A stretch of DNA of 64,000 nucleotides. Source: Acholeplasmataceae bacterium (GTDB lineage Bacteria > Bacillota_I > Bacilli_A > Acholeplasmatales > Acholeplasmataceae). The stretch lies in NCBI GenBank assembly GCA_963675245.1, contig OY775910.1, positions 96,001-160,000 of the forward strand, read 5' to 3'. The notes under the pieces are model-generated. The model had not been told where the DNA came from. It saw nothing but the letters and a program-made list of their open reading frames with translations, and searched no databases. Shown here one piece after another: positions 33,280 to 53,657 of this stretch (its first letter is position 1; each line of letters begins with the position of its first letter). Made by a program: the position numbers and the translations under genes.

Positions 33280-33300
33280 CTTAATGCCCTCCCTGTATAG

Positions 33301-33516
33301 TTATAAATTGATAACGAATGATCTAACCAAAATGAATAAGATGATCATCATTAAAAGCACTATGAATCCAAGCGGTGTTAGAGACTCTCTAACGCCTTCT
33401 TTTGCATTTCTGATAGCACCAGTTAACCTCGGTACCATCCCAAACAAGAAAATCAATAAACCAACATTTAGAATTGTTTCCCAATTTTCAACGATAAAGC
33501 CAAAGAAGTCAAACAT
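33301..33516 (-). CDS. Small two-TM protein (candidate virion protein)
   Basis: 71 aa, two hydrophobic helices; coupled to the 748-aa gene. Confidence 0.6.
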   Translation of the reverse strand: MFDFFGFIVENWETILNVGLLIFLFGMVPRLTGAIRNAKEGVRESLTPLGFIVLLMMIILFILVRSFVINL

Positions 33517-35762: not shown

Positions 35763-35763
35763 C

Positions 35764-36459
35764 TTAGTGTTTACCTCTTTTTTTTCGTATCTTTGAAATA
35801 ATAAATATTACAACAATCAAACAAACCAGGAAGACAATAACGATGTTATCTGTTACTACTTCCCAAAACGAACTTGTTACAGGACCTTCAATTTCCATGT
35901 CTGGAACGATTTGATTTTCTGGAGAAACTTTGATGTAGGTTGAATATGTCTCTTCTGATCCATTAGTAGATAAAATCCTAAATTCAAATAGATAAATACC
36001 TGGTGTATTTGGATTATCATCATATTGATTTGTAATGACTACAACACTTGATTGAGAGTCGATTAAAAGTTGTTTAGCATTAATAAATGTATTGATAATC
36101 TCGTTGTTTGTGAGGGTTGTATCTTTGTATACATAGATCACATCATCATCCGTAACAGCTATGACGTCTCCAAGGGTTTGCATGACCCGAATAGATACTT
36201 CTTTTGTGTATGTAGCTACACCGATAGTAATTGTGTATAAACCAGGTATGTCACCATATCCAACATAGTTTTCTGATATGACCTCAGGATCCCCAAACTC
36301 TGATGTATATAGTGTGAGGATATTACTGAGGGTTAGAATCTTATCATATTGTTTTTGAATAACTGATGGACCTTCTATGGGTTCTTCAGCTGCAAAAGCA
36401 TGTACAGTGGTGAAGAGGAAAGCCATAGCTATTAAAATTGTAAGTATGACTTTTTTCAT
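35764..36459 (-). CDS. Exported Ig-like protein with C-terminal anchor (candidate virion protein)
   Basis: Signal peptide (AFA), PGLYTITI / PGIYLFEF repeats, TM followed by KIRKKRGKH. Confidence 0.6.
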   Translation of the reverse strand: MKKVILTILIAMAFLFTTVHAFAAEEPIEGPSVIQKQYDKILTLSNILTLYTSEFGDPEVISENYVGYGDIPGLYTITIGVATYTKEVSIRVMQTLGDVIAVTDDDVIYVYKDTTLTNNEIINTFINAKQLLIDSQSSVVVITNQYDDNPNTPGIYLFEFRILSTNGSEETYSTYIKVSPENQIVPDMEIEGPVTSSFWEVVTDNIVIVFLVCLIVVIFIISKIRKKRGKH

Positions 36460-36470
36460 AGAATCACCCC

Positions 36471-37979
36471 TTAACGTTTTTTACTTGCAAGTAGTGCTAC
36501 CGCAATAACTAAGATAAGGATACCAATCCAGTAATCCTGAATAAATTGAAAAAATTCACTTAATTCTGCATCGGATATATCATCTGGTGTGTCATCAGGA
36601 GTGTCATCGGGTGTATCGTCTGGTGTATCATCAATACCATCTGGTAAATCATTATTGTCAAGCGCTTCACCTGTGGTGGAATCAACAGTTTTGCCATATA
36701 AGACAATATCACCATTTATCACATAAGGTGTTGATCCTTCAAATAAAACGGTATACGTTGAATCTAAATACCAATCTTCTACTTCATAACCATTTTCATG
36801 AGATACACTTGGAATACTCACAGATGATCCAGGTCTATAATATTCAACTTCAGTTTGACCAAAATAATTTAGTGTGAAGGTTACATGTTCATTATCAAAA
36901 ACATCATAATTTGTTAAATATAAGAGAATTTGTTCTGAATCCGAAAATTGAAGTCCAAGTCCAGAACCACTAATCGATACAGTAGAACTTCCTGGAAATC
37001 TAAAGATTTCTACCACTAATGTTGAAGGTAAATCGGGAATATTAACAACTTGTTTAACTTCTCCCCCAATTGTTAGTACTAGAAAATCAAAGTATGTTTT
37101 TCCTGAAGATATAGTGATTTGAGATGGTTCTGCACTGTTTTGTGAGATAATTTGAGGATCAATAAAGTAATAACTATCAGTGTTGGTAATGTATGAACTA
37201 TCTTCAAGTTCGGATAATACAAAATCATGAGTTGCAGCACCTAAAGAAGTGCTGATAGATAATTCATCCGGTAAAACAAATATCCATTTTGCATATAAAT
37301 CTAGATCAGTTTCCAAAATTACATTGAATTCGAATTCATTCTCATATGTGGTTGAAGTATACCAACCACCAAAGGTATAACCTTCTTTTGTGGGTGTTGT
37401 TACAGGACTTGTTACTAATTTATTAGTGGTTGACTCTTGAAAAAGTAACGTTTCATCATCATAGTAATTAATGTTTGATTCGACAATATCACCACTGATT
37501 TCATAAACTTGTAATTGGACAGTGTAATTGATAAATTCACCAAAACCTGTATTTTCTGGAAAACGAATTTTAAGATAGATACCACTACTACCACCGGCAG
37601 TAACATATCGTGTAAATGTTTGATTGTTTATTAAAAATGGTGAGGTGTATGATTGTTCAGAAAGACCCATCACAAAAACTGGAAATTCAGAAGCTCCAGT
37701 TAGTGTCCCTGAAGTATGTGTCAATACAATTTTGTATAAATTATCAGTGATAAAACTAGAATTATATTGATTTATATAAATTTGTGAATATTCAATGGTT
37801 TCAGTATATGAGCCATTTAGTGTAATATATTCACCATCAAAACTATAAGATACTGATTCATCAATGGTATCAGATTCAGCATTTAATGTTATTAGTGTCT
37901 CAGTTTCAGCAGCAAAAGTTGTGGTTGTAGAAATCGTGACAGCTATTAAGAGTAAAAATGTGATTAGGAATTTTTTCAT
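36471..37979 (-). CDS. Candidate adsorption protein: signal peptide, two B-repeat domains, PDDT linker, C-terminal TM
   Basis: PTKEGYTFGGWY...DLYAKW; PDGIDDTPDDTPDDTPDDTPDD; TM followed by KKR. Confidence 0.65.
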   Translation of the reverse strand: MKKFLITFLLLIAVTISTTTTFAAETETLITLNAESDTIDESVSYSFDGEYITLNGSYTETIEYSQIYINQYNSSFITDNLYKIVLTHTSGTLTGASEFPVFVMGLSEQSYTSPFLINNQTFTRYVTAGGSSGIYLKIRFPENTGFGEFINYTVQLQVYEISGDIVESNINYYDDETLLFQESTTNKLVTSPVTTPTKEGYTFGGWYTSTTYENEFEFNVILETDLDLYAKWIFVLPDELSISTSLGAATHDFVLSELEDSSYITNTDSYYFIDPQIISQNSAEPSQITISSGKTYFDFLVLTIGGEVKQVVNIPDLPSTLVVEIFRFPGSSTVSISGSGLGLQFSDSEQILLYLTNYDVFDNEHVTFTLNYFGQTEVEYYRPGSSVSIPSVSHENGYEVEDWYLDSTYTVLFEGSTPYVINGDIVLYGKTVDSTTGEALDNNDLPDGIDDTPDDTPDDTPDDTPDDISDAELSEFFQFIQDYWIGILILVIAVALLASKKR

Positions 37980-37994
37980 AAGATGCTCCTTTTT

Positions 37995-38506
37995 GTTTTG
38001 TAGTTCCCCTACGGGTCGGGCTATACGGCTTACTTAATCGCAGATTAAGAACGCTCTTCTATCCCTAACTTAAGTGTTTAAACGTTGCAAGCAACCATTA
38101 AACACTAAATTGGTAGTCTAATTCAATGAATATTACATATTCATAGAATTAAATGACTGGGAAAATTAATTATATCGATAAAAATTTATATCAATAAACT
38201 TCTAATATTTTGTTTTTTGATTAAAAAATACAGAAAACTGCATTCGGTTAACCATTGCAAGCAATCGATAACCTGTATCTTGATGACTTAATTAAGAGAA
38301 TATAAATATTCTCCTAATTAATAAAGAAATTTTTTTATCAAAGTTATATACCTTTCAGGACTTATTCCATGGTACATTGACATTTGGTTCCGATTTATCG
38401 ATTTTTGAAAGGCTACCGGCAAAAGGTATGTGATCCTTTTGCCTTTCTTTTGGGAATAATCGATATCACCAAATGTCAATGTCTTTCACGGCATAATATA
38501 TAACTT
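37995..38506. other. Highly structured non-coding region (candidate single-strand origin / packaging signal)
   Basis: At least six hairpins, including ACATTGACATTTGGT/ACCAAATGTCAATGT, AGTGTTTAA/TTAAACACT and two TTGCAAGCAA-capped stems. Confidence 0.6.
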
Positions 38507-38764
38507 TTAGTGTCGGTTTCTAAGATAGCGTCTAGCAAATAATAGAAACGTGAATACAGCTACGACGAGTAAATAGAAAGCTGCATTATCAACGAATGTC
38601 GTGTTAAGCTGTGTAAACCAATCGACAAATTTAAACCAGACAGTTTCATTTGCGATAGCATCTGCACTCACTGTTATCATCGGCACAAATACGATACCTA
38701 AGACCATAACTACCACTAAAGCGATAACGACATTAATAAGTTGATTTCTTGTTTTTTTTGACAT
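38507..38764 (-). CDS. Small two-TM protein, candidate major coat precursor
   Basis: 85 aa: basic N-terminus, hydrophobic leader, acidic/amphipathic stretch, TM, basic C-terminus RRYLRNRH; strong AAGGAG SD. Confidence 0.55.
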   Translation of the reverse strand: MSKKTRNQLINVVIALVVVMVLGIVFVPMITVSADAIANETVWFKFVDWFTQLNTTFVDNAAFYLLVVAVFTFLLFARRYLRNRH

Positions 38765-38777
38765 GTTGTAATTCTCC

Positions 38778-39299
38778 TTAAGTTAAATTGTTAGAAATGT
38801 AGTAAACCTTTAATATGCCAATTTTGGCATCTTTTGTAATTTCATATAAACCATCTAGTTCATATAAATATCCTTCTTGAATTGCATCATATAAGAATTC
38901 GACATTTATGTTCATGAACCATGATTTAGGCACTTCTGTGAGAATGAAATTTAGTACTTCATCTTCACAATCAAAGTATTTTTGATTGAATACAGTCAAG
39001 TCTGAAACATCAAATTGTTGATACATTTTATCAATGAGGATTGTTTCAAGTTTGATTTCTTCAATCATTTTTTGTTTGGCAAGCATCGTGTATTGGAAAT
39101 ATATAATTGCAATGACGCCAAATAAGATTAACGTTGCTAGTCTAATTAACGCGATTGCATCAATTTGAGAAACACGATTGAGCAAATCTACTAGATCGAC
39201 TAATAATGTTATTTCATACAACACTAAGATTGCTATTAAGATATATTCATATCTTGATGATTTTACATATTTTGCTGTTTTATTCATTTTCTTCTCCAA
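38778..39299 (-). CDS. Two-TM hypothetical phage protein
   Basis: Overlaps the Rep stop; two N-terminal TMs. Confidence 0.6.
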   Translation of the reverse strand: MEKKMNKTAKYVKSSRYEYILIAILVLYEITLLVDLVDLLNRVSQIDAIALIRLATLILFGVIAIIYFQYTMLAKQKMIEEIKLETILIDKMYQQFDVSDLTVFNQKYFDCEDEVLNFILTEVPKSWFMNINVEFLYDAIQEGYLYELDGLYEITKDAKIGILKVYYISNNLT

Positions 39300-40443
39300 G
39301 GTATTCTTTTAAGTTTTTTATTGTATCTGATATGTCTTCTAAATTAATTTTTTTATTTCCATTATTTTCTCTGTAGTTGTTAATCATTGCTACATCTTGG
39401 GGTTTCAGTTCTTCTAAACCAGATAGCACATTTCTCATCATGTAATCCATAAAACTTTCATTACCATCAAATCCCGCATAGAATGCAGCATTCACTTTTT
39501 TTAATGATCGTTTATACCATGACTTTCTTTTTTCGATAGTTGTTTCTACACGATGTTTTACGTTTAAATCAATTTTCTCAACACTTTCCAGAAAAGCTAA
39601 CCAGCGATCGTCGGTTTTCCATCTACTAACTTGATGGTTATTTTTATTTGGCTGTTTCAGATCTAAACAGTTAATCAAGAGTTCTCTAGCATAAGTCATA
39701 AATTGAGCTGAGTTGTTCTCCTGAATTGAAACTGCATATATTTGCGTAACTGCATCAGCTTTTTCATTAACGAATCTCATTTCATATCGGTACCAAATAT
39801 CAGTATCTAGATCTGGTTCATTTCTTGCATTTCGTTCAAGTCTTTTATCATAAATCTGAAGTTGATTTGAACCCGCGCTACCAAGGGTAATCGTAAAACC
39901 TTCTGATATAACTAGATTGCTGCTATATCTTTCAGTGAATTGATAATTAATTTTTCTAAATGGACTCACAAAATGTTTGTTCCTCAAAATAGGTTCAATG
40001 TCGTAAATATCAATTTGTTCTCCATCAAAATCATCAATCGCAATATCAATTCTTTTAAAGCTAGCATCTTGTTCAATGAGAAAGGATAATAATTTAGTCC
40101 AATTGCCATCAAGAAAATTTTCAAATTCTCTACAAGCTTGGCCACTCATGAGTAGATTTATAGAATATCTACCATTTGCATTTTTAGTGTGTTCACCTCC
40201 GAAAAGTATTTTAATGTGTTCGCCTATTACATAGGCATTGGTATATCCTCTGACAGATTGTCCTATAGGTAAATTAAGATAACTGTCATGAAATCCTAGT
40301 AACTGAATAAAGTTGGTAAATAGATTCATATCACCAGATAATTGATACAAATTTTTGCTTGCTATGTGTACATCGACAAAATCCATTGAAACGGATAAAA
40401 AGTCAATCAGAACGCGTTTTTTAAGTTTCCGTTTTTCTATCAT
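39280..40443 (-). CDS. Rolling-circle replication initiator, Rep_trans (PF02486)/MOBT family
   Basis: IDFLSVS, LMSGQACREFE, KRIDIAIDD, TITLGS..QIYDKRLER, WYRYEMRF. Confidence 0.9.
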   Translation of the reverse strand: MIEKRKLKKRVLIDFLSVSMDFVDVHIASKNLYQLSGDMNLFTNFIQLLGFHDSYLNLPIGQSVRGYTNAYVIGEHIKILFGGEHTKNANGRYSINLLMSGQACREFENFLDGNWTKLLSFLIEQDASFKRIDIAIDDFDGEQIDIYDIEPILRNKHFVSPFRKINYQFTERYSSNLVISEGFTITLGSAGSNQLQIYDKRLERNARNEPDLDTDIWYRYEMRFVNEKADAVTQIYAVSIQENNSAQFMTYARELLINCLDLKQPNKNNHQVSRWKTDDRWLAFLESVEKIDLNVKHRVETTIEKRKSWYKRSLKKVNAAFYAGFDGNESFMDYMMRNVLSGLEELKPQDVAMINNYRENNGNKKINLEDISDTIKNLKEYLGEENE

Positions 40444-40454
40444 TGCACTTAGTC

Positions 40455-40476
40455 AGGGGGTGTTACTACACCCCCT
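40455..40476 (-). other. Putative double-strand origin (nick-site hairpin)
   Basis: Perfect 9-bp stem AGGGGGTGT/ACACCCCCT with 4-nt loop, about 12 bp upstream of the Rep start. Confidence 0.7.
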
Positions 40477-40482
40477 CGCTAA

Positions 40483-40668
40483 TCATCGTTGCTCTTTCTC
40501 AGATATTTCATTGAATTGTTCAACTATTTTTTTCACATAGTTATCATTCAATTTCTGCTGCTTTTTGATGAAAGCATTAAATCGAGCAATGATGAATAAG
40601 TAATCGAGGACTAAGACGATTAAAATTGCAATAAGTATGATTCGTATTTCGTCAGAAGTTAATGTCAT
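40483..40668 (-). CDS. Small single-TM phage protein
   Basis: 61 aa; overlaps the end of the ATPase gene. Confidence 0.55.
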   Translation of the reverse strand: MTLTSDEIRIILIAILIVLVLDYLFIIARFNAFIKKQQKLNDNYVKKIVEQFNEISEKEQR

Positions 40669-41971
40669 CTACACCACCACCCATCATGTCTTCATCTTTG
40701 AAGTAGCCGGGATTAAAATACCAATTGATTTCTGATGACTTTGTCTGTGTAGCTGCAAGCAATTCATTTTGGATAATTCTGTAGAAATGAGTATCATATG
40801 TTCCAAAACAATACATAGTAGGTATGTGAAAGATTAGTTTGTCATAATAGATTGAGTCTCTTTTTTTGACATCCTCTTCTGATGCGTAGTTCCAAATTTC
40901 ATATTTGTTAAATCCAATAGATATAAGGAACCATTTGATGTGCAATAATTTATTAAGGATTTTTCTTTCAACATTTACAGTTTCAAAATAATGTTTCGTG
41001 TAATCTTCATAGGTTGTTTCTTTTGAAATCGTGTTTAATATTTTTTTGAGGAGGTAAGGAATGAAAAGTCTAAATAATTTGTATACACTAAATGAGAATG
41101 CAATAAATAAATTGATTAATTCAAATGTGAAATTGTAATTGCCTACTACTTTTATTGGTTTTGGTAACCATAAATTTGATTGTGTTAAAGATCTAAATTT
41201 CTTGATTTCATCTCTAACATCTTGCTTGGTTGTAATCATCCGGTTTCGTTCCTGGTGTATTTGACCAAACTTTCTACGATAATCTTTATCTCCAGCCTCT
41301 TCTTTTACATCTTCATAACGTTTATTTGCACCTATTTCATCAGACGCTTCATCAATGAGTTCGATCATGTAGTCATATATCGAATAATCTTTCAGAGCGT
41401 ATGCATCATGAATTTTTTGTTGCTCGATTTTATAATTGAAATTAAATGAAAATGTTACATGTGAATAAAAGTTTGTTTTGGAGTGAACATAGTTTTTTCT
41501 GAAGTTTAAAACCCAATATGCAAAGATATAATCTTGAAATTGTTCTTTAGATTTTTTTGATGTAATAAAATTTAATATGAGTGATTGGTTTATTTTTTGG
41601 TTTTTGATTTCTTTTAATGTTTTTTCATAGATGTATTGAAATTCTATAGTTTCATTTTTTTTGAAGTATTCATCAAGAAGTTTATTGATAATTGAAAAAT
41701 CTAATTTGTTATAAATTATCATAATTTCTGAAAGTAATAATTTTAATTTTTCTTCTATTTCAATTTGGTAGATATGACTTAACCCAGATTGAAAGCTTGT
41801 TTTGCCTGTTCTAATCGCTCCATTAATGGAGATTAGAAAACCAAGTAAAGAAGCTTTAATTTTGGATGCTTCATATTTATGATTAAGATATCCCCGATGT
41901 ATTGTAATTGAAACGAGAGGTACTATTATTATTGAGTCAATGATTAGTAAAAGGATAATTATGCTACTCAC
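40652..41971 (-). CDS. Zot/pI-like morphogenesis (extrusion/packaging) ATPase
   Basis: N-terminal TM, Walker A GAIRTGKTS, Walker B ELIDEA, ITTKQD..IKKFR motif; GGAGG SD before GTG. Confidence 0.7.
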   Translation of the reverse strand: MSSIIILLLIIDSIIIVPLVSITIHRGYLNHKYEASKIKASLLGFLISINGAIRTGKTSFQSGLSHIYQIEIEEKLKLLLSEIMIIYNKLDFSIINKLLDEYFKKNETIEFQYIYEKTLKEIKNQKINQSLILNFITSKKSKEQFQDYIFAYWVLNFRKNYVHSKTNFYSHVTFSFNFNYKIEQQKIHDAYALKDYSIYDYMIELIDEASDEIGANKRYEDVKEEAGDKDYRRKFGQIHQERNRMITTKQDVRDEIKKFRSLTQSNLWLPKPIKVVGNYNFTFELINLFIAFSFSVYKLFRLFIPYLLKKILNTISKETTYEDYTKHYFETVNVERKILNKLLHIKWFLISIGFNKYEIWNYASEEDVKKRDSIYYDKLIFHIPTMYCFGTYDTHFYRIIQNELLAATQTKSSEINWYFNPGYFKDEDMMGGGVDDINF

Positions 41972-42026
41972 TTAGTACCTCCGCTTCATTCATTCATACT
42001 ATGGGGGGGACACATGAATGATTTTT

Positions 42027-42554
42027 TTAAAATTCGATATCTTCTGAATCTACTTCCTTAGAAATTGTATCTGGTCTATGTTCCCACTTGATTTTAAGCA
42101 ATTTCTTTTCTTCTAGATTCTCTAATAAACGTTGTTGATCGTAACTTAAGAAGTGTGTAATATATAACCCTTTTTTGAAAATTATTTCTATAGATTTATA
42201 TTCACCTTCCATGTTCGAGTAGGACCCAGTTACAAACCGAACTGGAACATTTCTATTCCATTCAGTAAGATCCCTACCTTTTTTGTCTTCAAGCTCAAGT
42301 CCTACTTCCAAAATAATTAGATTGAATAATTCGTTTGAAATAAAATCTTTCGGACCACCAGCTCTAAGATTTAATTGTCTTAAGAACTTGTTATGGAGGT
42401 TAAGATAGATAGATGCCATCTCTCTGCCATTACGATAAACCTTTGTAAATTTGACCGGATACTTTTCAAGTTTTGATACAATTGGTGCTGTTAAATCACT
42501 GAGTTTTACAAATTCTGGTACTTTTTTGGTTTCTTTTGTCTCTGTTGTTGCCAT
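42027..42554 (-). CDS. Hypothetical phage protein (first gene of the core operon; possibly ssDNA-binding)
   Basis: AAGGAG SD, soluble 175 aa, acidic tail SEDIEF; function inferred from position only. Confidence 0.55.
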   Translation of the reverse strand: MATTETKETKKVPEFVKLSDLTAPIVSKLEKYPVKFTKVYRNGREMASIYLNLHNKFLRQLNLRAGGPKDFISNELFNLIILEVGLELEDKKGRDLTEWNRNVPVRFVTGSYSNMEGEYKSIEIIFKKGLYITHFLSYDQQRLLENLEEKKLLKIKWEHRPDTISKEVDSEDIEF

Positions 42555-42714
42555 TTTTATTTCTCCTTTTTGTTTTTTGTTGTATACTTAATTCGGAAGC
42601 ATCCTTCTCGGCTTTTGAGCCAATAAGAGTTTTGTACTCATAGGATTGCTTCTTTTTTTGACTTGTCACTACTAAAGATATATAATCAAACTGTATTGAT
42701 GAAAGGATGATTTT

Positions 42715-42897
42715 ATGCCAAAAGATAAACCTATTTATATTGATCCTATACATGTGATTGATGGATGCCCTGAATTAAAACCAACAAACTACACTCATGT
42801 TTCCATATCAGATTCTATGCATATCAGAGATGGTGAAGGTAGTGTAGTAGAACTATCCGAATTTGAAGTAGTCAGTGGTGAATTAGAAGATAAATAG
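42715..42897 (+). CDS. 60-aa acidic protein with own promoter, counter-oriented to the core operon
   Basis: TTGACT-N17-TATAAT (42658-42686), GAAAGGA SD. Confidence 0.55.
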   Translation: MPKDKPIYIDPIHVIDGCPELKPTNYTHVSISDSMHIRDGEGSVVELSEFEVVSGELEDK

Positions 42898-42937
42898 AAC
42901 TATTGACATTTAGTTTTATCTGAAGTAATATTGAGTC

Positions 42938-43006
42938 ATAGCAATTGATTTTATCGGTCGTAGGGAATCGTAACCTACCAGCTAATAGAATTGATTGCTT
43001 TTTTTT
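42938..43006 (+). ncRNA. Candidate ~70-nt countertranscript/immunity RNA
   Basis: TTGACA-N17-TAATAT (42903-42931); 15-bp stem 42940-42954/42985-42999 that pairs fully only as plus-strand RNA (G-U pairs); inner GTAGG/CCTAC; T8 tail. Confidence 0.6.
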
Positions 43007-43096
43007 ATGGAGAGATTCGCCACTGGATGGATCTATCCAGAGACGAATCATTTCCTATTCAGTTGTCAAAGATCGTGACGGTTCCTTTTTGAAAAC

Positions 43097-43124
43097 AAAA
43101 AACGAACCTACTAATAGATCCGTT
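43097..43124 (-). terminator. Minus-strand intrinsic terminator/attenuator just inside attR
   Basis: AACGGATCTA-TTAG-TAGGTTCGTT followed by T-tract on the minus strand. Confidence 0.55.
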
Positions 43125-43186
43125 GCTTACTTTAATTTTATGACCTTTTTTTACTCGAAATCCGTTAATTATAACTGGGACCCAAA

Positions 43187-43233
43187 GACTCTTAATCAGT
43201 GGGTCTACGGTTCGATCCCGTAAGGGGGTACCA
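43187..43233 (+). repeat. att copy 1 (attR of module 1): 3' half of tRNA-Lys
   Basis: 47-bp exact match GACTCTTAATCAGTGGGTCTACGGTTCGATCCCGTAAGGGGGTACCA. Confidence 0.95.
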
Positions 43234-43354
43234 TATTACAATAAGACGAATCTTGAGCAAAGCATAACACCCAAGATATGCTCCGTGACATTTCATCACA
43301 CATCTATGATAAAACAATAAATTTGCTTTGTCAATAAGAAAGGAGCATTTTAAA

Positions 43355-43567
43355 ATGCACAAGTTAAAAAAGATTCGTACTGATAAGGGTTTATCACAAA
43401 CCCAGGTTGCTAAGATTCTAGGTGTTGATAGAAGCTCAATATCTAACTATGAGAGAGGGACAAGGAAACTTGATCAAGATCAAATAGTTGCATTAGTCAA
43501 GGCTTTGAATACAACAGCTGATTACTTCCTAGGACTGTCTGAGACCGAAAAGAAAGAGCAACATTAA
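43355..43567 (+). CDS. XRE-family HTH repressor, module 2
   Basis: LSQTQVAKILGVDRSSISNYERG; leftward promoter at 43306-43334. Confidence 0.9.
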   Translation: MHKLKKIRTDKGLSQTQVAKILGVDRSSISNYERGTRKLDQDQIVALVKALNTTADYFLGLSETEKKEQH

Positions 43568-43618
43568 ATTGCTCTTTTTTTATTAAATTGATTTATATAA
43601 TCTAAAATTTTGTTTGTC

Positions 43619-44170
43619 TTATACGATTTCTTCAAAATATTCTTCATTTGTTTTAGTATCCGAGACAGCATTGAAAATAAAAGTAAATACTGAATCCTCA
43701 TCAAATTCATTTTCAATACCCTCTAGTGAAGCTGATAAAATATAATCAAAAAATAATTCTATGGATTCTTCTTTTAATTTATATCCAAATTGTTTCATTG
43801 TTAATATTGCACTAATATAATTAATAATAACCTCATTATTAAAGCAGTTATATTTGCGTACTTTTTCAAATACAGTTAGTTTATTATTTTGAAATACATC
43901 AATAATTTGTTCTGGTGATAAACATTTATTCATGTAAAATTCTAAAATGTCTACTAACTCTTTATCAGCTAAAACTTTAGATTTAATAGTTTTTATACCA
44001 GTTATTATTTCATCAGTTGTTTCATTATATTTTTCATTATGATGCCAATAATAATTTAGTATAAATTCCATATATGCAAAACATCCTTCTGAATTTTCCG
44101 ATATAAATTTATTATAATCTAAAGATAATTTAAATCTACGTGCTCTAAATTGGTTAAGTTCGTATAACAT
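43619..44170 (-). CDS. Hypothetical protein (cargo)
   Basis: 183-aa ORF with SD. Confidence 0.6.
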   Translation of the reverse strand: MLYELNQFRARRFKLSLDYNKFISENSEGCFAYMEFILNYYWHHNEKYNETTDEIITGIKTIKSKVLADKELVDILEFYMNKCLSPEQIIDVFQNNKLTVFEKVRKYNCFNNEVIINYISAILTMKQFGYKLKEESIELFFDYILSASLEGIENEFDEDSVFTFIFNAVSDTKTNEEYFEEIV

Positions 44171-44199
44171 ATTCTTTGTTCCCCTATTATTATTCTTTT

Positions 44200-44496
44200 T
44201 TATTTTCTTATAATGTTTTTTATTTTATCTTTGTAAACCATAAGATCTGGATACTTCTCATTTGTATATTTATATAAACCATTTATTATCAAATCAATAC
44301 TAATTGATCTTAAGCTACTCTTTAAATAATCTAAATCATGATGATCTTCAGAAAGATATTCCAGCATCATTTTAAATAAATTTATAAAAGTCTCTGCAAT
44401 TGGATCAGCTATTCCCTTGCCTTGTTTTAAAAAATAATAATGTGCTGTATTACTATTAAAAGAATTCAGTAATTCTAATGCATTAGTTCTAGACAT
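44200..44496 (-). CDS. Hypothetical protein (cargo)
   Basis: 98-aa ORF. Confidence 0.5.
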   Translation of the reverse strand: MSRTNALELLNSFNSNTAHYYFLKQGKGIADPIAETFINLFKMMLEYLSEDHHDLDYLKSSLRSISIDLIINGLYKYTNEKYPDLMVYKDKIKNIIRK

Positions 44497-44630
44497 TTAA
44501 TATTTTTATTCCTTTCGTTATTTTATCAAAGATAGATTCTTACAATTTGTGTTCACTTTATTGATTTATATAAATGGTTATACGCTTAATCATCAAGATT
44601 CATCATCAAATTCATTAATTTCATAAGCTA

Positions 44631-45452
44631 TTAATATTTATCTCTTTTCCCTTTGTTGCATCTCTCACACAAAGTTTGAAGATTGTCATCTGTTGACTTT
44701 CCACCTTTTGATACAGGCTTAATATGGTCAACTTCCAAACGAACTCCAGCGGCAGCTGTCGCCCCACAAATGCAACACCTGAAACCATCTCTTTTCATTA
44801 TCTCGTAACGTTTATCATCTGAAAGAATAGCGCGTTGTTGTTGTATAAATGTCATTTTTCCTTCTTTTTCCAACGCCACTCGATAACATTCTAAAATATC
44901 ACTAAACTCGTATCTTTCATTTCTATCATAGTCACCATACTGCGATGTTGCCATTAAATGCAATATAACACTTGGAAATCGTGGGTCATAAGTTTTTTTG
45001 CTAAGCAACTCTTCTTCATACTTTTTAAGTTCTTTAAATCTATTTTCGGTTGTCGATCCAAAATTTTTGGCAAACCAATTTCTATTATCATGAGGTGCAG
45101 TTGAGATATCCTTATAAAGTCTCTTTACCTCAAAAACCTTTAAAACTTTCTTTTTATATTCATTAAATATCATAAAAATATCAATGTATTTATTAACTAA
45201 TGATTTGTAAATTATCATCTCTCCAAATATTTTCCCAGATAAATATGCTTTAAAGTCAAACGAACTACCAAAAATGAATGAACCACCGAAATATGATTTC
45301 CCATATTTTGCTTTACTTGTGCGTTTTTCGTATTTTATCGGTTCTACTTTTATAGCATCAAAATTATAGTTGTTGTATTTTTTGTTAATCGTCTCAATTT
45401 CCAGCCACATTATATTATTTCTTATGCTTGTTTTTGCATCTTTAAATTGCAT
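44631..45452 (-). CDS. HNH endonuclease (C-terminal McrA-like domain)
   Basis: RDGFRCCICG..LEVDHIKPVSKGG..NLQTLCERCNKGK. Confidence 0.9.
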   Translation of the reverse strand: MQFKDAKTSIRNNIMWLEIETINKKYNNYNFDAIKVEPIKYEKRTSKAKYGKSYFGGSFIFGSSFDFKAYLSGKIFGEMIIYKSLVNKYIDIFMIFNEYKKKVLKVFEVKRLYKDISTAPHDNRNWFAKNFGSTTENRFKELKKYEEELLSKKTYDPRFPSVILHLMATSQYGDYDRNERYEFSDILECYRVALEKEGKMTFIQQQRAILSDDKRYEIMKRDGFRCCICGATAAAGVRLEVDHIKPVSKGGKSTDDNLQTLCERCNKGKRDKY

Positions 45453-45725
45453 ATTGTCTCCATTTGAACATATAAATTTTCATATGTATTTCTTCAATAA
45501 GATTTTGAAAATGGTACATTACTTATTAATAGTATACTATTTTTATGGATTAATTTATAATGTTAATTTGTCTATCAAAATATTTTAACACTCACTAATT
45601 ATACATCTTACTAATAACCTTTTGCTTTATCAAAGGACTAAAATATGAAATATAAAGTAAAGACTAATAATTAGTTTTTTGTATAACTATTCTATCAATG
45701 TTGTAAAAATGAAATATGGAAAAGT

Positions 45726-46682
45726 TTATTCTTTTACATCAGTAAATGGTGGGTTAAACAATCTCATTTCTGATGTTGGACCATCATTTGAAATCTCTAA
45801 TTTTTCATTTAAATGACCATGTAATATTTCAGAAGCAATTTCTCTTATCTTTTCGAAGGGTTCCCCAAGAACATCATAATAGTTATCAAAAATTTTAATT
45901 AAGTCATCAATTATGTTCGTTTCAAAGTAAATATGTTGAAGATATTGAATATCAGAAGAAAAATAATCGTTATCCATCCATGAATAACCATGTAATAATA
46001 ACTCTCTTATTTTTTTATGCATTTCAATATCTATGTTCCACGAAAAACCTCGGCCATAAATAGTTTTACTAATCATTGTTTTTTCAGCATATGTTATATG
46101 AAATGAATATCCTGAATCAATAATTATTTTTGGAAACATGTGAAATACATTACCACTATATGTCTTTAAATCATAATAAATTGAAATATTAGGTCCTCTT
46201 TGTCGTGGATCAAATAAATATCCAATGGTTTTTTTAGTGTAATCAAATTCGGAATTGAGTTCTTTATAATCTAGATACAGTTTGTAAGGTTTATTTAGAG
46301 CGACTATTTCTGTAGACAAGCAACTAAACAATTCTTTTAAATAACTCGTATAAGTGTCATTACTAATGTAATATTTTCCTATAGATTTTGAATAATCATT
46401 AAATCTTTGTATTTTATTTTCCCACAAGATCATTTCTGTCTTTTTTAAGTTTTCTAATTTTTCAAAATCATATTCATTTGGAATGAAAATCTCCAATTCA
46501 TCATCTGGCTTATTTTGATTTTGCTCCCAACAATCATCACATAGCCAATATCTATGTCTTTTAAATTCTCTCATGATAGACTGATGCCTTTGAGAAAAAG
46601 TGTTTGATGAAACCAAAACATCTGCATTGTATCGTCTACTACAAATCTTACAAATTCTTGTATCGGGTAAATACATTGGCAT
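45726..46682 (-). CDS. Hypothetical protein with N-terminal CxxC..CxxC zinc finger, coupled to the sigma factor gene
   Basis: CKIC...CDDC; starts 1 nt after the sigma stop. Confidence 0.6.
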   Translation of the reverse strand: MPMYLPDTRICKICSRRYNADVLVSSNTFSQRHQSIMREFKRHRYWLCDDCWEQNQNKPDDELEIFIPNEYDFEKLENLKKTEMILWENKIQRFNDYSKSIGKYYISNDTYTSYLKELFSCLSTEIVALNKPYKLYLDYKELNSEFDYTKKTIGYLFDPRQRGPNISIYYDLKTYSGNVFHMFPKIIIDSGYSFHITYAEKTMISKTIYGRGFSWNIDIEMHKKIRELLLHGYSWMDNDYFSSDIQYLQHIYFETNIIDDLIKIFDNYYDVLGEPFEKIREIASEILHGHLNEKLEISNDGPTSEMRLFNPPFTDVKE

Positions 46683-46683
46683 C

Positions 46684-47586
46684 TCATATCACCTTTTTTA
46701 ATTTTTTGATTGCTCTACTTTGAATCTGTCTAACTCGTTCTCTAGATATTCCAAATAAGTCTCCAACTTCTCCTAGAGTTTTTTCATCATAATCTATGCC
46801 AAATCTCATTTTAATAATTGCTTGTTCTCGTCTATCTAAAACTTGTAAGATATCATCCACAAATTCATCAAGCTCTTTTTCATTATTGTATTCTTCTGGA
46901 TTCTTATTTTTCTTGTCTTCTGTGAAATCTAGAAGTCTGGAATTATCTTCTCCTACACTTTGATCTAAAGATATCGCATCATCACTACACAAATAAACTA
47001 TCTTTAATGACGGTATTGATATATTTGTTAATTTTGAAACTGTTTCAATATCGGGTTCTACACCATTTTCTTTTATATATTTAATAGTCGCTTTTTTAAT
47101 AATAGCTAATGAATCATATATATGTACTGGAATCCTAATTGTTCTAGCTGTATTAGAAATTGACCTTGAAATGAATTGTCTAATCCACCAAGTTGCATAT
47201 GTTGAAAGTCTGTATCCTTTTTCAACTTGAAATCTGTCTATAGCTTTCATCAAACCCATATTTCCTTCTTGAATAAGATCCATCATGGGAACATTCGTAT
47301 ATCTATATTTCTTAGCTATATTCACTACCAATCTTAAATTTGAAACAACCAATTTATCTCTGGCTTCTTTTCCAAGTTCTATAATTTTTTCATCTTTAGA
47401 TTTACGAGCTGCCAATACTTTACCAGCAAGTTCAATTTCTTCTTCCTTAGTCAGTAATCGAATTTTACCAATATCCTTTAAATATACACTTAAAGAATCA
47501 TTTAAATTAACTAGATCTTTTGAATTTATTAATTCTGTATCCGATCCTTCTAATTCATGATTGTTCAATACATTTTTCGATTTCAA
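46684..47586 (-). CDS. RpoD-like sigma-70 factor lacking region 1.1 (cargo)
   Basis: DSLSVYLKDIG..LLTKEEE, NLRLVVNIAKKY, DLIQEGNMGLMKA, STYATWWIRQ, RTIRIPVH, TLGEVG..SRERVRQI; promoter TTGACA-N16-TATAAT at 47661..47634. Confidence 0.92.
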   Translation of the reverse strand: MKSKNVLNNHELEGSDTELINSKDLVNLNDSLSVYLKDIGKIRLLTKEEEIELAGKVLAARKSKDEKIIELGKEARDKLVVSNLRLVVNIAKKYRYTNVPMMDLIQEGNMGLMKAIDRFQVEKGYRLSTYATWWIRQFISRSISNTARTIRIPVHIYDSLAIIKKATIKYIKENGVEPDIETVSKLTNISIPSLKIVYLCSDDAISLDQSVGEDNSRLLDFTEDKKNKNPEEYNNEKELDEFVDDILQVLDRREQAIIKMRFGIDYDEKTLGEVGDLFGISRERVRQIQSRAIKKLKKVI

Positions 47587-47815
47587 ATAGTTTCTCCCAA
47601 TCTATTTTTATTTTTGTATCTCTTAACATACGAATTATACATAGCTAAAAAACTTTGTCAAGGGGTGTATTTTAAAAAATTTTTTGATAATACATAAATT
47701 AATTCTCCCCCAGAAATGCATTGATGTCTATATATTTATTATACACTGCACAAGTATATAAAAAAAGCACTTAAATAAGTGCAATAATTAACTAATTAAT
47801 TTGTAAAACTTCCTA

Positions 47816-47861
47816 ACTCTTAATCAGTGGGTCTACGGTTCGATCCCGTAAGGGGGTACCA
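47816..47861 (+). repeat. att copy 2
   Basis: 46-bp exact match to the tRNA 3' half starting ACTCTTAA. Confidence 0.95.
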
Positions 47862-47982
47862 AAATACAATAACGAGACTTAAGCAAAGCATTACTCCGCG
47901 AAGAGTTGCTCCGTGACATTTCATCACACATCTATGATAAAACAAAACATTTGCTTTGTCAATAAGAAAGGAGCATTTTAAA

Positions 47983-48195
47983 ATGCACAAGCTAAAAAAG
48001 ATTCGTACTGATAAGGGGTTATCACAAACCCAGGTTGCTAAAATTCTAGGTGTTGATAGAAGCTCAATATCTAACTATGAGAGAGGGACAAGGAAACTTG
48101 ACCAAGATCAAATAGTTGCATTAGTCAAAGCTTTAAATACAACAGCAGATTACTTCCTAGGATTGTCAGAAACCAATGAAAAAGGACAGAAATAA
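47983..48195 (+). CDS. XRE-family HTH repressor, module 3
   Basis: Protein identical to the module 4 copy. Confidence 0.9.
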   Translation: MHKLKKIRTDKGLSQTQVAKILGVDRSSISNYERGTRKLDQDQIVALVKALNTTADYFLGLSETNEKGQK

Positions 48196-48271
48196 AAATT
48201 TTGTCCTTTTTTAACTGAACGTTTTAACAAAACAATTTCTAAGCTGCTCTTTTTTAGGTAATATTGAAAAA

Positions 48272-48433
48272 TTATTTATTTTCTAACTTTAAATAACCAG
48301 CTAAAAACATTATAACAAATATAACTAACAATACCCTTGCACCAACTTCAGTTCTATAAATTGCTACAGTCATTACAATTATTCCTATGATACCAATTAT
48401 TGTAAGAGCGATATTTATTTTTTTTGAATTCAT
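48272..48433 (-). CDS. 53-aa two-TM peptide (not in ORF track), possible immunity partner
   Basis: MNSKKINIALTIIGIIGIIVMTVAIYRTEVGARVLLVIFVIMFLAGYLKLENK; GAGGTG SD right after the upstream stop. Confidence 0.6.
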   Translation of the reverse strand: MNSKKINIALTIIGIIGIIVMTVAIYRTEVGARVLLVIFVIMFLAGYLKLENK

Positions 48434-48442
48434 AATCACCTC

Positions 48443-49477
48443 TTAATAATCTGATAAATCATTGAAACCAATTGTATAACCTATTGAATTGAATTCTGGT
48501 ACTGGTTCTAAACTAATTCCGCTATAAGTTACATATGGATAAATCGGTGTCAATGTAATTCTTCCTGGATCTATTTTCCATCCGGAAAACTGGTGAACAT
48601 AAGTTCCTAAAATATCAATTGAATTAATTTCACTAGTTGATGGAATAAGTACTGTTTCAAACTCAAACTGCAATTCTGATACAATTTGTCCTTGTGTAAA
48701 CATTAAACCGAAATCAGAATATGTTATAAAAAATGATTCAGGAACTTCGTAAGGTACCATAATTGTTCGTTCGTTTGGAGTGTACTCATAAATATCATCA
48801 TCAGAACCAACAACAACTTCTTCTCTATCTTCATCAATTGATACAAACATTTCTCCATTTACTACAGTGTAATTAAACAGATGATATTGCATTTTCGAAT
48901 ATATTTTAGCGTGTTCTTCAGAACCAGCAGGGTAGTTTCCATTAATATCCGGTAAAACTTCTTCATTATTATTATAGTAGACAAACTTTGGCTTAAATAA
49001 TTCAGTATATGCTATATTTAGCAGGTCAATTAAACCATCGTCTTGCACTGAATCCCATTCAACTTTCATCCAATAATATAGTTCACCATATTGACCATAT
49101 GTTGGGAAATAAGTTGCTTGAATACTAATTGAAAAAAAACTGTTATTATTATATCCATCCTTTGATATCATCGGTGGAACATCTCCACCACCACCTGAAT
49201 CTCCACCATCATCAAATTCAAATCCAGCCCCTAAAACACTATAAGAAATAATATCATTTAATTCTTTCTCTTTATCGTCCTTATATTTCTTTAATTTCTT
49301 TTGATATTCTTCCTTTGAAAGATTGTGAATTGTGCTTACAGTCTTTCCATCGACTTCATTATTAATTTTTTGATAGTATTCTTTAACTTCATAGGTATAA
49401 CTTTCAATCGCACCAAATGAATTAATAGATAATCCCATAAAAATAAACACTAATAGAAATAATATAATCTTTTTCAT
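48443..49477 (-). CDS. Secreted protein (cargo)
   Basis: Signal peptide MKKIILFLLVFIFMGLSINSFG from ATG 49477 (GGAGG SD); Gly-rich linker. Confidence 0.7.
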   Translation of the reverse strand: MKKIILFLLVFIFMGLSINSFGAIESYTYEVKEYYQKINNEVDGKTVSTIHNLSKEEYQKKLKKYKDDKEKELNDIISYSVLGAGFEFDDGGDSGGGGDVPPMISKDGYNNNSFFSISIQATYFPTYGQYGELYYWMKVEWDSVQDDGLIDLLNIAYTELFKPKFVYYNNNEEVLPDINGNYPAGSEEHAKIYSKMQYHLFNYTVVNGEMFVSIDEDREEVVVGSDDDIYEYTPNERTIMVPYEVPESFFITYSDFGLMFTQGQIVSELQFEFETVLIPSTSEINSIDILGTYVHQFSGWKIDPGRITLTPIYPYVTYSGISLEPVPEFNSIGYTIGFNDLSDY

Positions 49478-49543
49478 TGCCCCTCCCAAGTTTTTTTTCA
49501 TTTTATCATATATTAACAGATATATCAATTGAAGTCTTTTTTT

Positions 49544-50761
49544 CTATATCTTACTAATAGGATATGCAATAACATCTTTTGTTAGATACATTGGATTTTC
49601 TATCATCGATAATAGATATTGTCCACCAATCACTATATCACCTTTATTCTTGATTGTATCAAAATTCTTTATCATATGTAATGATGGATGTGAAGTTTTC
49701 TTCACTTCAACTAAATATAACTTGCCATTTTGCTCTAGTACTATATCCACTTCATTTTGATCCCTATCTCTATAGAACATGAGATTTGGTTCAATACCTT
49801 TATTACGGTATGATTTTATAATTTCAGAAATCGCATATGTTTGGAGCATGAATCCTGACATTGCGCCACTTTCTAATACTTCTGAAGTTTGCCACTTCAA
49901 CAAGAATGAAGCAAGTCCAGTGTCCATAAAATATAATGTCGGTGTTTTTACTGCTCTAGATAATAAATTGTTTGAATAAGGTTTAGCAATATATACAATT
50001 GAAGATGCTTCTAATACGCTTAACCAGCTCATTGCTGTTTTTAAATCGATGCCGACTTCACTTGCAATTGAAGCATAATTTAGTAATTGTCCAGTTCTAG
50101 CTGCAACTGCAACCATAAATACAGAAAAACGATTCAAGTCTCTAATATTGATGATTTCTCTTACGTCTCTTTCAATATATGTAGACACATATGAACGATA
50201 AAACAGTTGCCAATCCATCATTTTATTTTCATATAATTCTGGATATGATCCTCGATGAATGATTGACCATATATTACTATTAAACGACTTTCTTTGATTG
50301 CTGATATATGCTATATCTGGTACAAAAACATCTTGAAAAGATTCTGTATTTATTTCTCTAAGTGATAAACCGGAAAGTGATAAAATACCGACTCGACCAG
50401 CGAGTGATTCAGATACATGATGCATCAAAGAAAATGTTTGCGAACCAGTTAATATGATTTGTCCTTTTTTCTCACTTTGATCAGCTAATAATTTAAGATA
50501 AGGAAATATCTCTTTAACTTTTTGTACTTCATCTATGATGATAGGCAATGTATGTGTTTGAAAAAATAATGCTGGATCACGTTTTATTTGCTCTTGAATT
50601 AGCACATCATCTAGAGATACATATTGATGAGTGTTACCAAATATTTTTTTAATGATTGTTGTTTTACCAACTTGTCTTTGTCCAGTCACCAATATGATTT
50701 TGAACATTTCTGACATTTTAAGCAAAATATCTTCAGCATGTCGTTTTATATAGTTCATCAT
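49544..50761 (-). CDS. AAA_14 + DUF4143 ATPase
   Basis: GQRQVGKTT, IIDEVQ, LTGSQ, ESLAGR, GSYPE, YIERD, KTPTLYFMDTGL, EVD..VEVK; promoter TTGACA-N17-TAAAAT at 50820..50792. Confidence 0.9.
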   Translation of the reverse strand: MMNYIKRHAEDILLKMSEMFKIILVTGQRQVGKTTIIKKIFGNTHQYVSLDDVLIQEQIKRDPALFFQTHTLPIIIDEVQKVKEIFPYLKLLADQSEKKGQIILTGSQTFSLMHHVSESLAGRVGILSLSGLSLREINTESFQDVFVPDIAYISNQRKSFNSNIWSIIHRGSYPELYENKMMDWQLFYRSYVSTYIERDVREIINIRDLNRFSVFMVAVAARTGQLLNYASIASEVGIDLKTAMSWLSVLEASSIVYIAKPYSNNLLSRAVKTPTLYFMDTGLASFLLKWQTSEVLESGAMSGFMLQTYAISEIIKSYRNKGIEPNLMFYRDRDQNEVDIVLEQNGKLYLVEVKKTSHPSLHMIKNFDTIKNKGDIVIGGQYLLSMIENPMYLTKDVIAYPISKI

Positions 50762-50904
50762 TAACCTCCGTCTAATATGGAATTCAATTCCATTTTAGCC
50801 GTTACATTATGTTTTGTCAATTGTTTTCATTATTAATACCTATACAAACGGAGTTTTTCGTTATGTTTTACTGGAGTGATTTGGTATTATTATCAAACCT
50901 TGTA

Positions 50905-50950
50905 ACTCTTAATCAGTGGGTCTACGGTTCGATCCCGTAAGGGGGTACCA
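50905..50950 (+). repeat. att copy 3
   Basis: 46-bp exact match. Confidence 0.95.
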
Positions 50951-51070
50951 AATTACAATTAAATGGACTTAAGCAAAGCATACTCCGCAAGAACTGCTCC
51001 GCGACGATATGTCACTACATCTATGATAAAACAATAAAATTGCTTTGTCAATAAGAAAGGAGCATTTAAT

Positions 51071-51283
51071 ATGCACAAACTTAAGAAAATCCGTACTGAT
51101 AAGGGTTTATCACAAACCCAGGTTGCTAAGATTCTAGGTGTTGATAGAAGCTCAATATCTAACTATGAGAGAGGGACAAGGAAACTTGATCAAGATCAAA
51201 TAGTTGCATTAGTTAAAGCTTTAAATACAACAGCAGATTACTTCCTAGGACTATCAGAAACTAATGAAAAAGGACAAAAATGA
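51071..51283 (+). CDS. XRE-family HTH repressor, module 4
   Basis: 70 aa, same protein as 47983-48195 with synonymous changes. Confidence 0.9.
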   Translation: MHKLKKIRTDKGLSQTQVAKILGVDRSSISNYERGTRKLDQDQIVALVKALNTTADYFLGLSETNEKGQK

Positions 51284-51383
51284 AAATTTGTCCTTTTTTC
51301 TTGATTGTCATTTATAATCAAATAATACCAATTTAAATTAAAATGTTAAAAGTTGAATCACATTAAAAACTAAACACTAATAT

Positions 51384-52175: not shown

Positions 52176-52201
52176 TTAATAACCTCCTTTTTGAATTGTG
52201 T

Positions 52202-53338: not shown

Positions 53339-53498
53339 TTTTCTTCTCCTTTTTCTATTATTCAAATACAAAAAAGCTTACAACGTAAGCACCCCCAAGA
53401 TGTCATGTATCTCTATAATGTAATTATAACATCAGTATGTAGTTATAAAACACAACATATATGTCAATAATTTAATGCAATTTAAACAAATGAAATAC

Positions 53499-53547
53499 CT
53501 GACTCTTAATCAGTGGGTCTACGGTTCGATCCCGTAAGGGGGTACCA
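53499..53547 (+). repeat. att copy 4
   Basis: 49-bp exact match starting CTGACTCTTAA; followed by terminator-like AAGACTTCA/TGAAGTTTT. Confidence 0.95.
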
Positions 53548-53657
53548 TTTGATAATTAAAAGACTTCATTTTGAAGTTTTTTTTGTTTCACAAATCTCTT
53601 AGTATACCTATTTAGATCAATTCACTTGCTTTGCTAATAAGAAAGGAGCATTTTAAA

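Follow-up and report, generated by a model that had tools for sequence, protein, structure and literature searches.

A probable recombination core within a tandem array of plasmavirus-like units at a tRNA-Lys(CTT) gene of an Acholeplasmataceae bacterium

Anatomy of the tRNA-Lys(CTT) locus

A 64-kb window of the genome of an Acholeplasmataceae bacterium (contig OY775910.1, positions 96,001 to 160,000 of the forward strand) harbors five consecutive units, u0 to u4, downstream of a tRNA-Lys(CTT) gene, which is the only tRNA gene found in the window by ARAGORN. Window numbering is used throughout, and the complete genome (G000) comprises 1.63 Mb. The units are separated by copies of the 3' part of the tRNA gene, from the anticodon loop to CCA, which is referred to as O (Table 1). 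The 17-mer CTCTTAATCAGTGGGTC, which starts at the anticodon loop, occurs six times in the window (at 25884 within the tRNA and at 43189, 47817, 50906, 53503 and 55765), whereas 0.01 copies are expected from shuffled sequence. Genome-wide these six are the only copies, all within one array. Over their 46 nt, which begin one base ahead of the loop and run to the CCA end, the O copies do not differ, except that the last one has two substitutions.

The first copy after the tRNA is part of a symmetric site. Its core consists of GACCCAAAGA (43179-43188), the heptamer CTCTTAA of the anticodon loop (43189-43195) and TCAGTGGGTC (43196-43205). Of the 10 positions of the left arm, 8 agree with the right arm once that is reverse-complemented (GACCCACTGA), and P(≥8) is 1.9e-4 per 10-mer when all 10-mers of the genome are considered on both strands. 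Inverted half-sites thus surround a 7-nt spacer, within the 6-8 bp overlap of tyrosine recombinase cores. A first-pass annotation of the window had read these letters and their dyad correctly, placing the end one base too far at 43206, and had regarded the site as a plain attR and the only attachment (att) site with a symmetric core. The intact tRNA site, GAGCAACTGA-CTCTTAA-TCAGTGGGTC, is likewise symmetric at 8 of 10 positions. Moreover, since the copy at 43189 has on its right a flank with homology to the P'/XRE module of u1, the site is, as judged from its flanks, an attP-like P-O-P' hybrid and no simple attR.

Unit u0, to the left of this site, carries a cargo slot with genes for a lipoprotein, GmrSD, a DUF6997 protein, a Dam methylase and a DUF3920 protein (Pfam). 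Beyond the slot it encodes an integrase, membrane or envelope proteins of 748, 231 and 502 amino acids (aa), a Rep_trans protein and a 439-aa protein, in which a P-loop-like motif was seen by eye and no Pfam family was detected. Among 50,697 phage records the integrase was most similar to open reading frame (ORF) 5 of the Acholeplasma plasmavirus L2 (34.8% identity over 98% of its length, E 6e-41). The 748-aa protein is 26% identical to L2 ORF1, and the XRE protein 47-54% identical to an unannotated reverse-strand frame of L2. Homologues of L2 genes are therefore found in L2 order, integrated in a tRNA-Lys gene, and by this gene content u0 is classified as a provirus related to L2. It encodes three large membrane proteins and may give rise to enveloped virions of the budding type. 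The L2 genome has the same layout, with O (again spanning anticodon loop to CCA), XRE, a short slot, the integrase on the other strand and a long operon leading back to O. It differs in its target, tRNA-Val(GAC), and in its slot, which holds one small ORF as opposed to 6 kb of defence-type cargo in u0. Integrase matches with E≤1e-25 were obtained in 25 of 172 genomes of the family, the best being 40% identical, so that no close relative of u0 was found among them.

The solved structures nearest to the u0 integrase are XerC-like, XerA and XerD, all of equal size, and the catalytic R, HxxR, H and Y positions align with those of the XerC-like structure. Because the protein is Xer-like in size, it is predicted to be a simple two-domain recombinase with no room for a separate arm-binding domain.

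The cargo of u0 (27934-31814) is of defence type, with GmrSD, a three-domain DUF6996/6997/7226 protein and the Dam methylase. In a metagenome provirus (L137) a Dam and DUF6997 pair, 58-64% identical to that of u0, occupies the same slot, and in genome G091 a GmrSD gene (53%) adjoins the XRE gene at the tRNA-Lys.

All five units open with O followed by a homologous XRE module, and these modules are also homologous to those of proviruses. Pairwise module identities are 91% for u1-u2, 90% for u2-u3, 85% for u1-u3 and 77-81% where one of the two is u0 or u4; in a separate search the u4 module aligned to the others at 74%. The first 35 bases of the u4 module are replaced by a terminator resembling the native tRNA flank. 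The array has a single integrase, that of u0, at a distance of 9.9 kb from the nearest cassette joint. A tblastn search of 43234-60500 with proteins of u0 and of metagenome proviruses recovered no integrase or structural-gene remnants but only XRE (best non-XRE E 0.011), and no remnants of an integrase 3' end were detected in the left arms of the units. Units u1-u4 each lie between two O copies and are devoid of integration or transfer genes by Pfam and tblastn, two properties of cis-mobilizable elements (CIMEs).

XRE2 and XRE3 are identical as proteins (70 aa) despite 13 synonymous differences. Among XRE1-3 the ratio of nonsynonymous to synonymous divergence (dN/dS) is 0-0.11 with dS of 0.35-0.43, and the 6-7 nonsynonymous differences that separate XRE1 from XRE2 and XRE3 all fall in the tail. 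These values indicate, at the level of coding sequence, strong purifying selection on XRE1-3, which are orphan repressors whose own phages are gone. As synonymous divergence is high and dN/dS low, the units are separate acquisitions with maintained repressors, and an origin of u1-u4 by segmental duplication of one unit appears unlikely. There is also a gradient of decay, the XRE of u4 being a pseudogene and the last O carrying the substitutions. In the related genome G169 the same tRNA has no array, and synteny resumes at window position 60578.

The position of strand exchange can be estimated from the points at which identity to the tRNA begins. In all partial copies examined at tRNA-Lys, tRNA-Val, tRNA-Gln and tRNA-Arg it begins 0-4 bases from the loop; most copies at tRNA-Phe set in at tRNA position 26-27, some 6 bases ahead of the loop. 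This would place the crossover in or at the 7-nt anticodon loop, as the first-pass annotation had proposed.

Taken together, we consider it likely, with a probability of roughly 0.6, that the site at 43179-43205 is the recombination core of an L2-like provirus in an array built by repeated integration at tRNA-Lys(CTT). Every incoming circle would have brought O with a P' arm and an XRE repressor gene behind it, and strand exchange in or at the loop would have restored the tRNA and displaced older units outward. Unit u0 would be the newest and is complete, while u1-u4 would be older, independently acquired units reduced to O, repressor module and cargo, i.e. integrase-less, CIME-like remnants. 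Recombination between the core and the tRNA site would release u0. The cargo-O joints of u1-u4 would most likely be products of this integrase family rather than of random deletion. They appear to keep a weak left half-site beside a perfect overlap and right half-site and are probably usable in trans by the u0 integrase at some efficiency.

Table 1. Features of the tRNA-Lys(CTT) array (window coordinates; x/10, agreement of the left arm with the dyad)
Feature	Position	Strand	Description
tRNA-Lys(CTT), intact	25853..25928	+	ARAGORN; proximal att site, B-O-P' of u0
Unit u0	25929..43187	-	predicted L2-like plasmavirus provirus (Pfam, comparison with L2)
XRE0	~26050-26262	+	in u0
Tyrosine integrase, 290 aa	32407..33279	-	in u0; PF00589, E 2e-38, profile positions 3-170 of 172
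Terminator-like hairpin	43101..43124	-	in P arm of u0
Symmetric core	43179..43205	+	P arm of u0, O and P' of u1
O copy 1	43188..43233	+	46 nt, last base of the 5' strand of the anticodon stem to CCA end
Unit u1	43234..47815	-	183 aa, 98 aa, HNH protein 273 aa, 318 aa, sigma-70 factor 300 aa; no integrase
Promoter-like TTGACA-17-TATCAT	43306..43334	-	in XRE1 module, aimed across O into u0; consensus scan only
XRE1	43355-43567	+	in u1
O copy 2	47816..47861	+	left arm AACTTCCTAA, 5/10
Unit u2	47862..50904	-	secreted protein 361 aa, AAA/DUF4143 ATPase 405 aa; no integrase
Equivalent promoter-like site	47934-47962	-	toward left-hand unit
XRE2	47983-48195	+	in u2
O copy 3	50905..50950	+	left arm AACCTTGTAA, 5/10
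Unit u3	50951..53501	-	lipoprotein 263 aa, secreted protein 389 aa; no integrase
Equivalent promoter-like site	51023-51051	-	toward left-hand unit
XRE3	51071-51283	+	in u3
O copy 4	53502..53547	+	left arm AAATACCTGA, 5/10; followed by terminator resembling native tRNA flank
Unit u4	53548..55763	-	lipoprotein 141 aa, protein of 379 aa; no integrase
Decayed XRE module of u4	~53655-53860		frameshifted
O copy 5, most distal	55764..55809	+	left arm AAACTATTGA, 6/10; 2 substitutions; followed by decayed native-type flank (B')

The promoter-like sites of the XRE modules have a counterpart in L2, where TTGACA-17-TATAAT lies beside the XRE gene and faces, across the tRNA-like stretch, ORF6 and the long operon. 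Should these promoters be real, integration would sever the promoter from its operon, and in the array the repressor-controlled promoter of u1 would then face the operon of u0. Hairpins comparable to that in the P arm of u0 occur in the left arms of u1 (47767-47782) and u3 (53376-53390), and, as read by eye from the flanks, at a comparable position in four metagenome left arms (L121, L124, L128, L130).

The large secreted proteins of u3 (52202-53371) and u4 (54572-55711) belong to no Pfam family and are weakly related to each other. That of u3 has a 65% identical homologue in G077, located with a lipoprotein gene beside housekeeping genes. The 379-aa protein of u4 is 24% identical to a 510-aa protein (L038 5898-7430) of a unit in G167. 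At the far edge of the variable region lies an IS110-family element (59024-60590, transposase of 386 aa), of which three further, 100% identical copies are present in the genome (634980, 845501, 1355637).

Left arms in L2 and other relatives

The Plasmaviridae have a single classified member, and the family's ICTV profile describes L2 as temperate, with site-specific integration by its own recombinase, and places L2-like prophages in tRNA genes of Acholeplasma species (PMC12662186). In the L2 genome (NC_001447, L041) positions ~5380-5431, minus strand, equal the 3' part of tRNA-Val(GAC) from anticodon loop to CCA. This stretch was matched with at most three mismatches in the tRNA-Val(GAC) gene of 9 of the 172 family genomes, exactly in 2. 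It adjoins the unannotated XRE-like reverse frame (5063-5266) and the consensus promoter. We infer that it is the attP of L2; the "putative attP" of the GenBank record lies elsewhere, at 5029-5053, and is probably misplaced.

The left arm of L2 at this stretch, GATAGTTTAA, agrees with the dyad at 3 of 10 positions, as opposed to 8 at the u0 core. Scores of 4/10 and 3/10 were obtained for the left arms of a 4.8-kb integrase-bearing element at tRNA-Gln of the same genome and of a tRNA-Lys element in G171, whose integrase is split into two ORFs, while the left arm of a tRNA-Val provirus in G100 reached 7/10. Four further tRNA-Lys left arms were obtained from metagenome contigs (GGTGAACTCA, GATGAACTCA, GATACACTCA and CATACACTCT), and on one of these contigs defence genes (AIPR, C5 methylase, HATPase) directly abut O. 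Within the family the left arm thus varies and mostly lacks symmetry, and u0 with its 8/10 dyad is the exception. Given the low scores of L2, the tRNA-Gln element and G171, dyad symmetry does not mark a working site in this family.

A unit without integrase in G167 consists of an XRE gene, a 179-aa gene, a radical-SAM gene and the 510-aa gene. Its left arm agrees with that of L2 at 9 of 12 positions and the homologous arm of G171 at 10 of 12, where the chance of ≥9/12 is 9e-4 per pair and 171 pairs were compared. The left-arm regions of G167 and G171 have ~440 bp in common at 88-94%. The G171 element was considered as parent of the G167 unit and discarded, as the common genes and the arm fit a fusion of two units equally well.

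These arms bear on the proposal of the first-pass annotation that recombination at the distal copies would remove the core and lock the cargo in. This does not follow, as the arm of L2 itself scores just 3/10 and that of the G167 unit is L2-like. Under the annotation's own model, a joint that has recombined once keeps the same left half together with the perfect overlap and right half, which leaves the lock-in unsupported. The proposal has parallels in other systems. An integron cassette inserted at a poor secondary site can be stranded, and the half-site mutants lox66 and lox71 render Cre insertions irreversible, since a site with one poor half still recombines whereas a site with two poor halves is dead. 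In the array, however, every site retains a perfect right half, and because no double-mutant site arises, the lox logic argues against a lock-in.

Origin of the cargo joints

The first-pass annotation had listed the four bases preceding the heptamer, and this list was confirmed: CTGA in the tRNA, AAGA at the core and CTAA, GTAA, CTGA and TTGA at the distal copies. It had also described the distal copies as lacking the phage arm and joined to unrelated DNA. The DNA upstream is indeed unrelated, as the 500-bp left flanks of the O copies have no significant similarity to each other (best E 0.061), but the arms are not featureless. The distal arms score 5, 5, 5 and 6 of 10 against the dyad, with P(≥5) = 0.058 and P(≥6) = 0.013, which for four arms of ≥5/10 gives a probability of about 1e-5 (0.058 to the fourth power). 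T[AG]A is present at positions -3 to -1 in all four, again with a probability of 1e-5 given a genome frequency of 0.056. A loose pattern, RRAY-N4-T-N-A, drawn after the window arms had been viewed, is exact in u1 and u2 and partial in u3 and u4. The above-chance arm scores and the invariant T[AG]A make site-specific joints likely and random deletion unlikely. On this point the first-pass annotation is borne out, all four joints being clean and free of gene remnants.

Several observations weigh against the accretion reading. The left arms of u1-u3 are mutually unrelated though their P'/XRE modules are 85-91% alike, which is odd for retained phage P arms. A position weight matrix built from 8 arms outside the window gave the distal arms p = 0.07, 0.05, 0.14 and 0.22, for which a Fisher combination, by our own arithmetic, yields ~0.02, and it gave the arm of u0 itself p = 0.57, so that any "consensus" of the family is a loose one. 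For the order of arrival, decay is the only indication. Circular or empty-site junctions were not seen in the assembled contigs of 4 public runs, which are broken at the O repeat. A single contig of run X4 (depth 4.4), from a second sample that contains only 27% of the sampled words of 42000-51000, joins 50902 to 47814, the end of u2 to its start, and could reflect a circle, a tandem copy or an artefact caused by the 46-bp repeat. A further joint in X2/X3, 46454->51331 (side 21), was set aside as unreliable, as was the X4 joint, and depths (u0 32/70.6/86.2, downstream 24.4/70.4/75.5) cannot be read as copy number.

Ranked second behind accretion in general is the model of the first-pass annotation, which we regard as unlikely. 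It holds that u1-u4 are former proviruses in which the core recombined with a weak pseudo-site, NT(A/G)A followed by a heptamer-like sequence, upstream of the cargo. Integrase, structural genes and P arm would have been deleted in one step, leaving a dead joint and fixed cargo. The deletion route is chemically sound. Cargo occupies the slot between XRE and integrase in u0, L137, G171 and G091, and a deletion from slot to core would yield the observed layout with clean joints and no gene remnants. T[AG]A before the heptamer together with weak half-site similarity is expected of a site chosen by the enzyme, unrelated left arms beside closely related P'/XRE modules fit as well, and heptamer-like sequences with at most one mismatch are common (143 on the + strand of the 64 kb). 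The model, however, requires four independent rare events. The border between cargo and integrase in u0 offers no site with a left arm of ≥5/10 and at most one heptamer mismatch, and the left arms of u1 and u3 contain a terminator-like hairpin like the P arm of u0 and the metagenome left arms. Its dead-site component is contradicted by the 3/10 arm of L2 and by the G167 unit, and a joint that has recombined once would be no worse as a substrate afterwards.

No parental sequence was found either, so that no breakpoint can be read. A DNA search of the 172 family genomes with 43234-55764 returned only cargo homologues in other contexts. Homologues of the sigma gene in 9 places had no further gene in common; the homology of an HNH and sigma pair in G080 ends at 47647, 170 bp short of the joint, and a pair of lipoprotein and 377-aa genes in G077 lies beside housekeeping genes without upstream homology. 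IMG/VR contained no match to the 439-aa protein and two matches to the integrase at 22% identity. In metagenome contigs an exact 45-mer gave 0 matches, and when three positions were left free 17 loci were recovered, all of more distant relatives.

Partial tRNA copies are also present at other tRNA genes of this genome. At tRNA-Phe(GAA) (G000:C1 772658-772733; array to 783285; loci L148 and L150) an integron-like array comprises at least 8 partial copies, all of them with a terminator, at a spacing of 0.5-0.9 kb (4.8 kb for the last). The intervals contain 1-2 small + strand genes apiece, which have no similarity to each other. The copies have a common left arm (..G AAACGA/CTGAAAA), for which the tRNA itself has AAAGGA. 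At tRNA-Arg(TCT) (G000:C1 311930-312724, L149) a single cassette comprises a small membrane protein gene, a second copy of this tRNA from anticodon loop to CCA and a terminator; in this second copy the first stem pair flanking the loop is altered on both sides (C..G to T..A). The element at tRNA-Gln(TTG) (G000:C1 990414-995299, L119) is 4.8 kb in size and encodes an XRE protein, a second L2-type integrase (35% identical), three small proteins and a Phage_rep_org_N protein; a partial tRNA copy of 46 nt (93%) forms its boundary. Since it contains no structural genes, it looks satellite-like. Two adjacent tyrosine recombinase genes of ~320 aa each are located at G000:C1 1131872-1133382.

It is conceivable, if improbable, that the single-gene cassettes at tRNA-Phe and tRNA-Arg, like u1-u4, belong to an integron-like gene-capture system of integrase-less circles, which would attach by a tRNA 3' part and be moved by integrases acting in trans. 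The tRNA-Phe and tRNA-Arg arrays illustrate the appearance of att arms held in common and make integrase-less cassettes mobilised in trans plausible in this genus. The tRNA-Phe array has a common left arm and unrelated small genes. A tRNA-Phe search of the 172 family genomes gave a match in 69, and five genomes have three or more copies (G000 7, G102 6, G169 4, G070 3, G077 3). A 532-bp block of O and a 101-aa gene, 91.5% identical, is found at rank 1 after the tRNA in G169 and at rank 5 in G000, G091 carries a 6.2-kb integrase-bearing element at tRNA-Phe with O and terminator on both ends, and the X4 contig joining the two ends of u2 could be taken as a circle. However, the left arms of the tRNA-Lys array are not in common, unlike those of the tRNA-Phe array, and the block in G169 and G000 does not stop at the next repeat. 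None of the 6 tyrosine recombinase genes of the genome (128, 994, 1060, 1132, 1133 and 1490 kb) is near tRNA-Phe, no movement was seen, and the X4 contig may owe its joint to the repeat. Very unlikely, finally, is ordinary decay by random illegitimate deletions with clean joints as a selection effect: two internal deletions (716 and 922 bp) in the genes that G171 has in common with G167 show that plain deletional decay occurs at this locus, and the set of joints is biased as units are recognisable only where O survives, but random endpoints would have left parts of the P arm or of phage genes in some of the four units, where none was seen, and would give T[AG]A in 4/4 or four arms of ≥5/10 with probabilities of about 1e-5 each.

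A broader and rather doubtful conjecture combines parts of these models. Acholeplasma-type genomes may run tRNA-based gene capture, in which integrase-less circles with a tRNA 3' part would be inserted serially by L2-type integrases at tRNA-Lys, tRNA-Phe and tRNA-Arg. Cassettes would be born by recombination of a core with a weak look-alike beside cargo, in a provirus or a free circle, and the tRNA-Lys units would represent a large, repressor-carrying form and the tRNA-Phe units a minimal form.

Relation to known systems and biological meaning

The array at tRNA-Lys is best read as a tandem accretion array with integrase-less remnants, a known type of structure, derived here from plasmavirus-like elements. 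Decay to integrase-less units with both att sites, followed by tandem accretion, is well described for ICESt1 and ICESt3 of Streptococcus thermophilus and the tRNA-Lys islands of S. agalactiae (PMC5704250). As in the cases treated there, integrase-less, att-bounded units lie beside an integrase-bearing element, the structure is built by site-specific integration at the end of a tRNA gene, and internal att sites between neighbours are chimeric (PMC5704250). The present array departs from those systems in that its active element is a plasmavirus-like provirus where theirs is conjugative, in that a repressor gene under purifying selection persists in each remnant, and in that its left arms are related neither to one another nor to the active element's P arm.

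In Dehalococcoides, too, a single small-RNA gene, ssrA, is followed by many tandem islands that all terminate in a direct repeat of the gene's 3' end, and 15 islands without integration module are read as possible CIMEs (PMC3146451). These islands differ in that their enzyme is a serine recombinase, their repeat measures 20 bp and the position used is in the T-loop, and their repeats have a common 15-bp upstream motif, whereas the left arms at tRNA-Lys have just T[AG]A in common.

Integron cassette arrays resemble the locus in that unrelated genes are each bounded by a recombination site and new units enter proximally. In contrast to integrons, no intI, attI and Pc platform is present beside the array, its sites are 46-nt tRNA 3' parts and not attC hairpins, and its units carry their own repressor and promoters.

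The array shows a way in which defence genes, a sigma factor gene and genes for surface proteins are stored at one tRNA gene by a bacterium that has no cell wall and a genome of 1.6 Mb; just the repressor-plus-cargo ends of successive plasmavirus-like elements would be kept there. Together with its relatives the locus provides a comparative picture of att sites in the Plasmaviridae: the crossover would fall at the anticodon loop, the left arms vary and are for the most part not symmetric, and a promoter-like site reads across. If the pseudo-site step of the first-pass annotation were true, it would be a concrete mechanism for the domestication of prophage cargo. If the integrase-less units are still mobile, they would offer a route by which defence and surface genes pass between Acholeplasma species.

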